The notes beneath the pieces are model-generated. The model was not told where the DNA came from. It made no database searches and saw only the letters and a program-made list of their open reading frames with translations. Both the position numbers and the translations under genes were made by a program. This document shows positions 43,456 to 46,285 of a DNA stretch of 64,000 nucleotides, one piece after another. Positions within the stretch are counted from its first letter, which is position 1, and each line of letters opens with the position of its first letter. Source of the stretch: an uncultured Mycoplasmatota bacterium (GTDB lineage Bacteria > Bacillota_I > Bacilli_A > RF39 > UBA660); assembly GCA_900548695.1 (NCBI GenBank), contig URLC01000001.1:75878-139877 (forward strand). Direction: 5' to 3'.

Positions 43456-44055
43456 ATGAAAAATTTATTTTTAAATAATAGTATGGAGTTTATTTGCAAA
43501 TATCAAAGCTTTTCCGAACTTGAGAAAAAGAAATTACGTTATGGATTAGAAGGCATTTATTTAACTATTACTAAACTTATTATATTAATTATTATTGCTG
43601 TTGCTTTAAATATGTTAAAAGAGTTTATTATTATCGCAATATTATTTAATATTATTAGATATACAGGATTTGGATTTCATGCAGAAAAGAGTTGGCAATG
43701 CTTATTATTTTCTACTTTTAACTTTATATTAATTCCGTATAGCCTATTCAATTTAAAACTGTCTAATACTATAGTTTTAGGTATTTGCGTCCTATCTATT
43801 TTACATTTTTTATTATTTGCACCTGCTGATACAAAAAAAAGACCTCTTCCTAATCAAAAGAAGAGAGCTATTCGTAAGTTTATTACTGTTATTGTTGGAT
43901 GTTTTTATACCCTATTAATCATTTGTTTAGATAGTAATTATTGGACTAATATTTTACTTTCTGTACTTATTATACAAGCAATTGTTATTAGTCCTATTAC
44001 TTATTGGTTGTTTGGACAACCATATCATAATTATAAGAAGTTAAGTGCTAATTAG
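43456..44055 (+). CDS. agrB: Accessory gene regulator B (AgrD-processing membrane peptidase)
   Basis: AgrB family signatures: LRYGLEGIY, the catalytic region RYTGFGFHAEKSWQCLLFS (His/Cys), APADTKKRPLPNQKKR. Confidence 0.8.
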   Translation: MKNLFLNNSMEFICKYQSFSELEKKKLRYGLEGIYLTITKLIILIIIAVALNMLKEFIIIAILFNIIRYTGFGFHAEKSWQCLLFSTFNFILIPYSLFNLKLSNTIVLGICVLSILHFLLFAPADTKKRPLPNQKKRAIRKFITVIVGCFYTLLIICLDSNYWTNILLSVLIIQAIVISPITYWLFGQPYHNYKKLSAN

Positions 44056-44087
44056 CATTTAATTAATATATTATCGAGGAGTGTATC

Positions 44088-44210
44088 ATGAAAAAAAGAT
44101 TATCGATGTTGTTGGCAGCGGTGGCTATGATGGCAACCGGTGTTGCTGGCCTGGGGTGTTTGTGGATTATTGCTGGTGAGCCAAAAGCATTTATGTTTTT
44201 TAAGGATTAG
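44088..44210 (+). CDS. agrD: Autoinducing peptide precursor AgrD (40 aa; not in ORF track)
   Basis: GAGGAG RBS 8 nt before the ATG. Product MKKRLSMLLAAVAMMATGVAGLGCLWIIAGEPKAFMFFKD has an amphipathic N-terminus, a Cys-containing core CLWII and a tail with an EPK motif. It resembles a clostridial AgrD recalled from memory (CLWFT...EEPK, not verified) and sits immediately after agrB. Confidence 0.6.
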   Translation: MKKRLSMLLAAVAMMATGVAGLGCLWIIAGEPKAFMFFKD

Positions 44211-45519
44211 CATCCTTTTTCTTTTTGTTTTTTAGTATACATAATTCTTGAATGTAATAGTTTTCTATAATTTCTTGCTTTTGAGTTATCCATTTATTTT
44301 CTTTTATTAACTTAGAAGCAAAATATAGACCATTTCCTCTTCCTTCTCCTTTTGATGATACCCCTTTTTTGTTTCTATCATTTAGACTTTTATGCTTTTT
44401 AAAGGTATTTGAAAATACAAAATTCACTTTATCTTTCAACTCATATATTTCAATAGATAAATTTTTCTTTCTGCTTTCAGCTGCCGCTTCAATAGCATTA
44501 TCAAAATATATCCCTATAAGTTTACATAAAATTCTAATTTCTTTTTCTGATAGTTTTGTTAATATTCCTTTAGATTCTATACTTACCTCTGTTATTAAAT
44601 TAATTTTGTGCTTTTGAGCTATAGCAGATTTGTAGTACATTAAACCTTTTATTCCACCCTTTGGAAGATTTTTTAAATTAGTTACGGCTTGTCCCTCAAT
44701 GTTAATGTTATCCTCTAAGATTTCATCAATTTTATTTTTTACTTTTTTCTCTTTTGTTAAACAGCGTAATACTGCTAATTGATTTTTATATTCATGACGG
44801 TTTAATTGGTCTTTTTCTATCCAGTCTTCAAACGTCTGAATATAATTAAATAAACCATCATACTCTAGGCTCAATTGCTTATAATTATTCTGCTCTTTAA
44901 TGAAGATATATGTAATAATTAAAAATATAACTATTACTAGTACATTTATAAAATAATTTATATTGAAATTATTTGCTTTTGTAATATTATATGCTAAACA
45001 ACAAAAATCTATAATAAGTAGTATGATAAATACTAAATTGATAGTTTTAGTTTTACTGTTTACATTTTTATAAAACTTGTAGAACTGTAGGTGTAATTTA
45101 TTTATATTTATTAAGCTTATACTTATCAAGTTCACTATTATATTAGTCATTAAAAATATAATAGAATTATTTCTAAATTCATTTATGTCTAGGAACATCG
45201 TAAATAATGTTGCTGTTATTATATCTGAAAGAAATAATAGCAACATTAATAGTCCATTTACAATAGTTGATTCCTGGATAGTTATTCTAAATATATTTTT
45301 AAAAATAATAATATTTAGTAAGAAAATAGTAATAGTATAAAGACTTGTATATTGAATTTTATATGATATTACTGAGAAAATTATCAAGATTAGCAATAAT
45401 AAAACTATTTTACATGATATTTTTTGGCTACTTTTTTCATTTAATATCTTCTTGATTATGTAATAACTAGTAACAGTTAATAATATAGCACAAACTACTC
45501 TAACTAATACCTCTAACAC
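44200..45519 (-). CDS. AgrC-like (HPK10/LytS-type) membrane sensor histidine kinase
   Basis: Polytopic N-terminus. The C-terminal GHKL domain has N/G boxes (FDNAIEA, GEGRGNGLY). Overlaps the agrA-like gene. Confidence 0.75.
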   Translation of the reverse strand: MLEVLVRVVCAILLTVTSYYIIKKILNEKSSQKISCKIVLLLLILIIFSVISYKIQYTSLYTITIFLLNIIIFKNIFRITIQESTIVNGLLMLLLFLSDIITATLFTMFLDINEFRNNSIIFLMTNIIVNLISISLININKLHLQFYKFYKNVNSKTKTINLVFIILLIIDFCCLAYNITKANNFNINYFINVLVIVIFLIITYIFIKEQNNYKQLSLEYDGLFNYIQTFEDWIEKDQLNRHEYKNQLAVLRCLTKEKKVKNKIDEILEDNINIEGQAVTNLKNLPKGGIKGLMYYKSAIAQKHKINLITEVSIESKGILTKLSEKEIRILCKLIGIYFDNAIEAAAESRKKNLSIEIYELKDKVNFVFSNTFKKHKSLNDRNKKGVSSKGEGRGNGLYFASKLIKENKWITQKQEIIENYYIQELCILKNKKKKDANP

Positions 45520-46231
45520 GATTATACATCTCCTTCTTTTTACTTCTTGATATTTCTGTAAATTCTTGATTGTTTTTTAGTATTGCTACATTTCTTGTTA
45601 GACTATAACTTTTTACTTTATCTATATTTATGGCTACTCCTCTATTACATTTAAAGAATCTTTTATCTAACATTTTTAGTAGTTCATCTAAAGTTGCTAC
45701 TATGTGATATATATTATCACTTGTATAAATACTACATTTTTTACTACCTATTTCTTTTTCGACTTTTATTATATCTCTAAACTCAATATTATAAGCAATT
45801 TTCTTGTAAGTATATTTTAAACTTTTATATTTGTTATCATAATTTTTCATACAAATAAGTAAGGCATCTTCTAATTTCTTTTCTGAATGATCTAATTTAT
45901 TGATAAAATCAACCAACATTAGTCTTTTACCTAAAGCTTCATATTTATATTCTTGATAACCAGAAATCATAATAATCATTGATGTCCAGTCATCATATTC
46001 TTCTCTAATTAATCTTGCGGCATCTATACCAGATCCCTCATCTGTTCTGATATCCAATAAAAACACTTTAAATCCTGGAGTATCTTTGGCAGCTTTTTTC
46101 CATTTGTTGTTATAACAATTAAATGTTTGATATTTATACTCTACATCATATTTCATCATAAATTTATCTATTTGATATAAGTAAGATTTTTGCAACACCG
46201 GCTCATCTTCGCAAATTATAAAGTTAATCAT
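45500..46231 (-). CDS. AgrA-like response regulator (receiver + LytTR DNA-binding domain)
   Basis: Receiver domain (IICEDEP) and a C-terminal LytTR domain (FFKCNRGVAINIDKV). Start corrected using an AAGGAG RBS. Confidence 0.8.
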   Translation of the reverse strand: MINFIICEDEPVLQKSYLYQIDKFMMKYDVEYKYQTFNCYNNKWKKAAKDTPGFKVFLLDIRTDEGSGIDAARLIREEYDDWTSMIIMISGYQEYKYEALGKRLMLVDFINKLDHSEKKLEDALLICMKNYDNKYKSLKYTYKKIAYNIEFRDIIKVEKEIGSKKCSIYTSDNIYHIVATLDELLKMLDKRFFKCNRGVAINIDKVKSYSLTRNVAILKNNQEFTEISRSKKKEMYNRVRGIS

Positions 46232-46285
46232 TTTTGTCTCCTTCTCTTTTCCATAATTTTCCATTTTATTTACACGAAAAAACTG

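Follow-up and report, generated by a model that had tools for sequence, protein, structure and literature searches.

A probable agr-type peptide quorum-sensing locus with convergent signal and receptor units in an uncultured RF39 gut bacterium

In Staphylococcus aureus the agr quorum-sensing genes form a single P2 operon, agrBDCA, and AgrB cleaves the AgrD precursor between M32 and D33, with D33 and E34 both essential; the AgrB residues R70, G75, H77 and C84 are needed for this peptidase activity (PMC10196373). Here we describe a locus that encodes these four protein families as two convergent units, agrB-agrD and then regulator-kinase. It lies within a 64,000-nucleotide stretch of DNA, called the window below (assembly GCA_900548695.1, contig URLC01000001.1, positions 75,878 to 139,877), from an uncultured RF39 gut bacterium. 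We put the probability that this locus is a complete agr-type peptide quorum-sensing module at about 0.8. The original prediction, made from the sequence and a list of its open reading frames (ORFs), had proposed an agr-type locus here, and its parts, agrB, a real agrD, a convergent AgrC-like kinase and a LytTR regulator, are all recovered at the coordinates it gave. The four genes are:

43456–44055, plus strand: agrB, 199 amino acids (aa), a membrane peptidase/cyclase that would process AgrD
44088–44210, plus strand: agrD, a 40-codon ORF for a 40-aa precursor
44200–45519, minus strand: AgrC-like kinase, 439 codons
45500–46231, minus strand: AgrA-like LytTR regulator, 243 aa, in an ORF that is open up to 46264

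The minus-strand unit starts with the regulator, followed by the kinase (agrA-agrC order), with the 3' end of the regulator gene overlapping the kinase start by 20 nt. A regulator start at 46231 is more likely than one at 46264 because a GAAGGAG ribosome-binding site precedes this ATG and because it is the gene-caller choice in most relatives. The host is placed in family CAG-611, close to Ca. Faecimonas, which corresponds to GTDB genus CAG-877 of family CAG-611, order RF39, and has a genome of ~1.4 Mb with 28% GC (PMC8035907). For comparison, 34 related loci were taken from reference genomes, all of them uncultured gut metagenome-assembled genomes labelled Bacilli, Mycoplasmatota, Tenericutes or Ca. 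Faecimonas. Wherever the genes are visible, the order secA-hpf-csp, forward agrB and agrD, reverse kinase and regulator, GT4-mreB is retained over a drop in SecA identity from 93% to 62%, and the agr module is therefore old, vertically inherited and fixed in position across the clade. The convergent arrangement itself is universal in the clade, being present in 28 of the 28 relatives that show both genes.

The window AgrB matches Pfam PF04647 at E = 5e-32 and 111 bits (cut-off 23) over profile positions 5–183 of 185. It scores 114 bits with the NCBIfam AgrB-like equivalog, for which the cut-off is 282, and so belongs to the family without being that equivalog. Residues R68, G73, H75, C82 and K127-K128 are near-invariant among 35 orthologues and keep a spacing identical to that of R70, G75, H77, C84 and K129-131 in S. 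aureus. The catalytic His/Cys region claimed for this protein is thus present in the form of H75 and C82. A search of solved structures gave no match for AgrB or for the regulator.

The gap between agrB and agrD measures 32 nt and contains a GAGGAG ribosome-binding site (44076–44081) ahead of the agrD ATG at 44088. The predicted product in the window is MKKRLSMLLAAVAMMATGVAGLGCLWIIAGEPKAFMFFKD, which divides as follows:

44088–44156, plus strand: AgrD leader, codons 1–23, conserved among orthologues
44157–44159, plus strand: Cys24, near-invariant
44157–44174, plus strand: variable core CLWIIA, hypervariable after the Cys
44175–44177, plus strand: Gly30, Asp or Glu in relatives
44178–44183, plus strand: Glu-Pro; the follower extends to the stop codon

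Judged by orthology, this small ORF is a real gene and a member of the AgrD family. An ORF of matching position and frame stands directly 3' of agrB in 32 of the 34 related genome loci (in L019 by tblastn) and in all 14 of 14 further metagenome contigs. The original prediction had called the ORF missed and unannotated. It is indeed absent from the ORF track used there, but public gene callers do report agrD, so that "unannotated" is true only of that track. In an alignment of 31 orthologues (A2) the leader, MKKRLSMLLAAVAMLATGAAS.G, is conserved, 30 sequences have the Cys, and the five hydrophobic residues between it and [D/E]-E-P vary; the Cys-x5-[D/E]-E-P spacing is invariant, with G-E-P in the window. 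The NCBIfam AgrD model TIGR04223 is matched by 19 of these orthologues (best E = 1.1e-6), and the window AgrD is 40–68% identical to the nearer ones. The leader evolves under purifying selection (dN/dS ~0.18), the Cys+5 core (0.79) is close to neutral or diversifying, and the follower has a value of 0.49; these figures are approximate, as dS is saturated. One distant orthologue (L027:5652-5765) has a Thr aligned at the ring-Cys position of all the others (…STFTWWLLADEP…), and this variant may be lactone-type or a decayed copy.

The AgrD leader together with the ring Cys (44088–44159) resembles a lipoprotein signal peptide with a lipobox ending at that Cys. It comprises MKKR, a hydrophobic stretch and then A-S/G-L-G-C, fits a PS51257-style lipobox pattern in 22 of the 31 orthologues, and in four of them weakly matches lipoprotein signal models (spiralin_LP, LP_plasma). 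These features would be accounted for if the ORF encoded a small lipoprotein or a secreted peptide that AgrB leaves unprocessed and whose signal peptide is cleaved before the Cys. We consider such an identity extremely unlikely, as the ORF is invariably directly 3' of agrB, the AgrD model is matched by the majority noted above with E down to 1e-6, the invariant spacing after the Cys is the AgrB cleavage context, and the hypervariable residues that follow the Cys move together with the hypervariable sensor of the AgrC-like kinase, none of which a lipoprotein would lead one to expect. The leader of Clostridium perfringens AgrD is likewise signal-peptide-like. If the leader of the RF39 precursor is cut exactly at Gly-Cys, rearrangement of a tail-less AgrD ring to a lactam is to be expected, as reported for clostridial peptides (PMC8251862).

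The original prediction took CLWII as the thiolactone core and likened it to a C. perfringens ring, CLWFT, which is indeed listed in the literature (PMC12312760, Table 1). The same table gives CPWII for Clostridioides difficile, and the window CLWII(A) lies between these two published rings. By analogy with S. aureus, a six-residue ring, CLWIIA, is more likely than CLWII, because the [D/E]-E pair of the RF39 AgrD family always follows Cys+5, never Cys+4, and the S. aureus enzyme cuts directly before D33-E34. CLWIIA has a computed [M+H]+ of 700.385 and CLWII one of 629.348.

At the position equivalent to D33, the window peptide has Gly, 27 of the 31 aligned sequences have Asp or Glu, two have Asn (L026 and L028) and L029 reads E-D-I. 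The statement that the peptide carries all AgrD hallmarks therefore stands for its leader, Cys, Glu-Pro and position, but fails for the Gly in place of Asp or Glu before E-P and for the AgrD model, which the window peptide does not match. In the L043 cassette, elsewhere 98–100% identical to that of the window, residue 30 is Asp. It is conceivable that the Asp-to-Gly change after the predicted cleavage site impairs processing by AgrB and renders the window allele "mute", so that the strain would make little or no peptide yet could listen by means of an intact kinase and regulator. A Gly that is unique to the window allele in the alignment, its near-identical counterpart with Asp, the reported essentiality of D33 and E34 for cleavage in S. 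aureus, and a failure with TIGR04223 where 19 relatives pass all fit this possibility. Gly30 is nevertheless present in independent samples (at least the window, L044 and L046) and is therefore a real natural variant that is not obviously deleterious; the leader, the Cys and the subsequent Glu-Pro are intact, and the Asn of L026 and the near-identical L028 indicates that an acidic residue is not strictly needed in this family. We regard a mute allele as unlikely, if by no means far-fetched.

The kinase comprises two parts that differ markedly in conservation:

44920–45519, minus strand: sensor domain of the AgrC-like kinase, residues 1–200, membrane, hypervariable
44200–44919, minus strand: cytoplasmic module of the AgrC-like kinase, residues ~201–439

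Its assignment as an HPK10-type kinase is upheld by a polytopic N-terminal sensor, with ~6–7 hydrophobic segments in residues 1–207, and by an H-box (HEYKN, with His242 at 44794–44796), an N-box (residue 340) and a G-box (residue 391). Among solved structures the kinase matches only the S. aureus AgrC modules 6e52 (E = 6e-10) and 4bxi (2e-8), and it aligns over its full length with NCBIfam AgrC (E = 3e-15). PF14501 was not reported for the kinase in a Pfam scan at E <= 1; precomputed matches to this family are weak for an identical protein and unmarked for allelic kinases. The C-terminal tail beyond NYYIQE is variable, and its codons overlap agrD at 44200–44210. The convergently encoded regulator has the LytTR domain ascribed to it, well above the Pfam threshold (E = 1e-12, 48.5 bits against a cut-off of 22.6). 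Its receiver domain scores 25.5 bits, under the Pfam cut-off of 30.2, and by eye includes an acidic pocket (ED), an FLLD motif with the phospho-acceptor Asp and a later Lys. The match to NCBIfam AgrA is sub-cut-off at E = 6e-7.

Hypervariability is concentrated in the predicted signal and its predicted receptor. Mean pairwise protein identities among 11 close genomes are:

SecA: 94.5%
GT4: 92.7%
MreB: 95.2%
AgrB: 72%
Regulator: 76%
Whole kinase: 59%
Kinase residues 1–200 (sensor): 26–39%
Kinase residues 241–400: 81–95%

There are 22 distinct AgrD cores among 24 loci, and the window AgrB recurs unchanged in 49 blocks of the sequence collection. An AgrB 99–100% identical to that of the window accompanies the cores CLWIIA, CDWWLI, CPWWFN and CTWVIF, three of the cassettes adjoining a 100% identical AgrB and the fourth a 99% identical one, and each alternative core is paired with its own sensor, 31–35% identical to that of the window. 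The segment concerned can be delimited as follows:

~44080–45520, no strand assigned: exchangeable specificity cassette, agrD and the entire kinase gene

The flanks of this segment are ~100% nucleotide-identical to those of L045, L047 and L035, while the cassette between them is divergent, with identities of ~59% over the core and 3' end of agrD and 43–62% in the half that codes for the sensor. The regulator is ~100% identical between these pherotype cassettes. The agrD and kinase genes thus behave as one swappable specificity cassette, of which at least three versions are present on otherwise identical backgrounds, with sensor domains ~32% identical. From these comparisons it looks as though strains of apparently one species carry different signal-receptor versions, and by analogy the RF39 cassettes are the equivalent of staphylococcal agr groups. 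Inversion of the kinase gene places the conserved kinase module between the AgrD core and the sensor. Where sensor identity exceeds 55%, four of five locus pairs share at least four of five core residues; the two pairs with identical cores are one haplotype sampled twice and are no proof on their own.

Candidate control elements were found ahead of both units:

43345–43360, plus strand: tandem direct repeat TTCGACAATATTCGAC, 10-bp period, in the csp-agrB divergent promoter region
43419–43424, plus strand: candidate agrB -10 element TATAAT, a conserved column block in alignment A1, consensus match only
46247–46263, minus strand: conserved TGGAAAATTATGGAAAA element directly upstream of the regulator ribosome-binding site

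The genes csp and agrB are 215 nt apart in the window. Read on the minus strand, 43345–43360 consists of two perfect Spo0A core boxes, TGTCGAA, in tandem; TGTCGAA is the described core of the 0A-box (PMC3485338). On the plus strand this segment, TTTTCGACAAnnTTCGAC, is the sole strongly conserved non-coding block upstream of agrB in an alignment of 13 loci (A1), and it is found once per locus in 19 relatives and in three copies in L015, with diverged sequence around it. The window also contains spo0A at 9138–9944 on the minus strand (Spo0A_C E = 2e-41), probably starting near 9911, and RF39 bacteria are predicted to carry spo0A and to sporulate (PMC10868615). Three 10-bp-spaced T(A/C)GACA repeats, TAGACAAAT, TAGACAGTT and TCGACAAAAC, occur in the spo0A upstream region (9945–10020), directly ahead of a putative promoter, which suggests autoregulation, and the tandem motif is also found ~100 nt upstream of a bona fide spo0A in the metagenome contig L124. 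As the tandem 0A boxes are invariant upstream, spo0A is in the window and LytTR-type repeats are unconserved, the sequence suggests that Spo0A rather than classical autoinduction controls the csp-agrB region, and that signal production, csp or both are tied to Spo0A.

Among the matches listed in a metagenome scan for the tandem motif there was no agr locus of the RF39 lineage and no regulon was definable; 62 of the 80 fetched loci, with GC contents of 36% or more, probably match by chance. Three contigs of 24–25% GC, L054 (2722–3556), L123 and L115, have tandem TTCGACA ~100 nt ahead of a Spo0A-like regulator that is very divergent and that in L054 matches Spo0A_C at E = 4.5e-4 over the full profile, has a weak receiver and may be a degenerate Spo0A of another reduced lineage. 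The window spo0A itself sits downstream of a triosephosphate isomerase gene. The tandem motif was also considered as the -35 element of csp or agrB and rejected, there being no conserved -10 at the right distance. The agrB -35 region is poorly conserved, and a sigma-70 promoter scan returned 30 sites against 30 expected from shuffles and was not relied on. The minus-strand element at 46247–46263 is present as TGGAAAAnTnTGGAAA(A) in nearly all close relatives and may be the -10 of a regulator-kinase promoter or an operator. On the other side of the divergent region, csp (42995–43240, minus strand) has a long conserved upstream region reaching ~43330, with a TTGGT…ACCAA inverted repeat beside the ribosome-binding site and a conserved AATTCCTTTAATTG block, which resemble csp 5'-UTR (untranslated region) regulatory elements.

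Several results weigh against the reading of the locus as a complete agr module. The window AgrD itself has no Pfam or NCBIfam match, even at E <= 10, and its Gly30, at the S. aureus D33-equivalent, may by analogy make the allele poorly processed. With the NCBIfam AgrC and AgrA equivalogs the kinase reaches 56 bits against a cut-off of 500 and the regulator 29 against 400. No LytTR-type repeats (19–23 bp period) are conserved upstream of agrB in 16 loci, nor are any of 21-bp period upstream of the regulator gene; positive autoinduction, a hallmark of agr, is therefore unsupported, although the regulator may bind other sequences, and agrBD transcription probably does not proceed via classical LytTR autoinduction boxes. 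In distant relatives a degenerate 0A-like motif holds its distance to csp and not to agrB, and the 0A boxes may therefore serve csp, agrB or both. Finally, core and sensor similarity are uncorrelated in a Mantel-type test (rho -0.01), a value made uninformative by the saturation of sensors near 33% identity.

Taken together, the missed equivalog cut-offs, the lack of LytTR boxes upstream of agrB and the separate, convergent transcription of kinase and regulator could be explained if these two formed an independent two-component system that happens to stand beside agrBD and senses something other than the AgrD peptide. Orphan agrBD pairs have precedents in C. perfringens agrBD and C. difficile agr1 (PMC12312760). 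This explanation leaves unaccounted for that AgrC is the sole match of the kinase among solved structures, that a hypervariable sensor sits beside a conserved catalytic module, that agrD and the kinase gene are swapped jointly as a single cassette between identical backgrounds, and that the four-gene adjacency is retained clade-wide. We consider it very unlikely and retain the kinase and regulator as the probable receptor arm of an agr module.

In the favoured agr module, AgrB would cut the 40-aa AgrD after the sixth core residue, just before [D/E]-E-P, and the Cys thiol would cyclise the core, with the lipobox-like leader removed at or near the Gly-Cys junction. The resulting cyclic hexapeptide, predicted to be CLWIIA and less likely the pentapeptide CLWII, would be sensed by the polytopic domain of the convergent AgrC-like kinase, which would phosphorylate the LytTR regulator encoded just upstream of it. 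The size and chemistry of the ring, the pairing of peptide with kinase and the output regulon are inferred.

The two units of this module meet tail to tail. In the window the kinase stop codon (44200–44202) sits within the final agrD codons, giving an overlap of 11 nt. The original prediction described this overlap, and from it the possibility that the two transcripts interfere; the overlap is exact in the window but is not conserved, the distance between the agrD and kinase stops ranging from -65 to +638 nt among relatives. No significant hairpin is found at the window junction on either strand (z = -0.8 and 0.0), and a terminator pattern scan identified just one hairpin inside agrB and the following site:

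46283–46299, no strand assigned: terminator-like pattern-scan site where the upstream GT4 gene ends, a GC-rich hairpin flanked by T-runs, GCTGCTAAGAGATAGCAGTTTTTTCG on the minus strand

This hairpin probably separates the GT4 gene from the regulator-kinase unit. At the agrD/kinase junction, read-through into the opposite gene is plausible given the lack of a significant hairpin, and convergent overlapping 3' ends could serve as a regulatory device in which transcript collision or antisense pairing balances signal production against reception. The universal tail-to-tail layout would suit such a device, as would a gap too small for a terminator in most relatives (-65 to +37 nt in 21 of 29 loci, the window included). 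The distance is negative, however, in only 5 of these 29 loci, the window among them, and in L043–L046 of the 14 metagenome contigs; it spreads from -11 to +48 nt even among cassettes whose AgrB is 99–100% identical to that of the window, and the overlapping kinase codons belong to the variable tail past NYYIQE. Where the gap is wider, there are inverted repeats between runs of A and T that by eye, and without folding, resemble bidirectional terminators, which argues that the units are insulated wherever there is room. Interference as a selected mechanism is thus, at the sequence level, unsupported by conservation; what points to it is the conserved, convergent, near-gapless layout together with the terminator-less window junction, and we regard it as doubtful. 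In one relative, L021 (5001–5593 and 5764–6401), agrB seems split or frameshifted, appearing as two overlapping tblastn segments, and about 640 nt are inserted between agrD and the kinase gene; this locus may be decaying.

It is tempting to combine these features into a rewired agr system in which a Spo0A-gated signal, an antagonistic terminator-less junction and a strain-exchanged cassette act jointly, and in which gut pherotypes of one species would either coordinate sporulation or transmission or sabotage it. We think it improbable that all of these elements hold together. Minimally, the agr locus in the window is genuine yet fairly ordinary and leaves the accepted view of agr function unchanged; what our analysis adds are the pherotype cassettes within a species and the Spo0A boxes. 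Members of RF39, with genomes of ~1.4 Mb, are frequent inhabitants of human and animal guts, and none has ever been cultured. Peptide signalling from a fixed site, with several versions within a species, suggests kin discrimination and may time sporulation or group behaviour by density. The predicted peptides are short and easily synthesised, and could be of use in prompting growth in culture or sporulation, and in probing how strains compete in the gut. Two features are of note for agr research: a single AgrB sequence appears naturally to serve several AgrD cores, and a conserved kinase module lies between the two specificity determinants, unlike in staphylococci. Our literature search, whose coverage was incomplete, found no link between RF39 and agr or quorum sensing and no convergent agrBD/agrCA layout, both of which are weak evidence.

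With S. aureus the RF39 locus shares conserved, identically spaced AgrB residues of those required for activity, an AgrD follower that in most orthologues opens with an acidic pair (the window allele has G-E), and a division between hypervariable AgrD and AgrC sensor on the one hand and conserved kinase module and regulator on the other, together with within-species specificity groups. In staphylococci part of AgrB varies with the agr group and the hypervariable segments are contiguous, whereas in RF39 one identical AgrB accompanies different AgrD cores and the hypervariable segments are non-contiguous, split by the conserved kinase module. The divergent RNAIII of S. aureus has no obvious room in the csp-agrB region of RF39, where no RNAIII-like effector was identified, and the AgrA-type 9-bp repeats with a 12–13 bp spacer were not found upstream of RF39 agrB. 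The predicted RF39 ring has six residues, that of S. aureus five.

The autoinducing peptides (AIPs) of C. perfringens, CLWFT, and of C. difficile agr1, ANST-CPWII, have rings akin to the window CLWII(A), and both systems share with RF39 a signal-peptide-like leader and an E-P-K motif after the core, in line with the tail likeness to C. perfringens AgrD that had been proposed. No receptor genes adjoin their agrBD pairs, and the rings published for them are of five residues, whereas in RF39 the putative receptor genes are adjacent. C. difficile agr1 feeds into sporulation through the AgrCA-like RgaS-RgaR, and RgaR acts via VirR-like repeats of 21-bp period, which are absent upstream of RF39 agrB. 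Clostridium acetobutylicum likewise has agrBD and agrCA as two operons, without RNAIII, and its six-membered ring and its link to sporulation match what is predicted for RF39. A LanM-like effector gene lies downstream of agrCA in C. acetobutylicum; none is seen in RF39, where GT4 and mreB flank the locus. In RF39 the regulator gene comes before that of the kinase, and the two units meet tail to tail; we found no description of a convergent layout for C. acetobutylicum. In organisation and in predicted ring size, RF39 agr is nonetheless closest to the C. acetobutylicum type.

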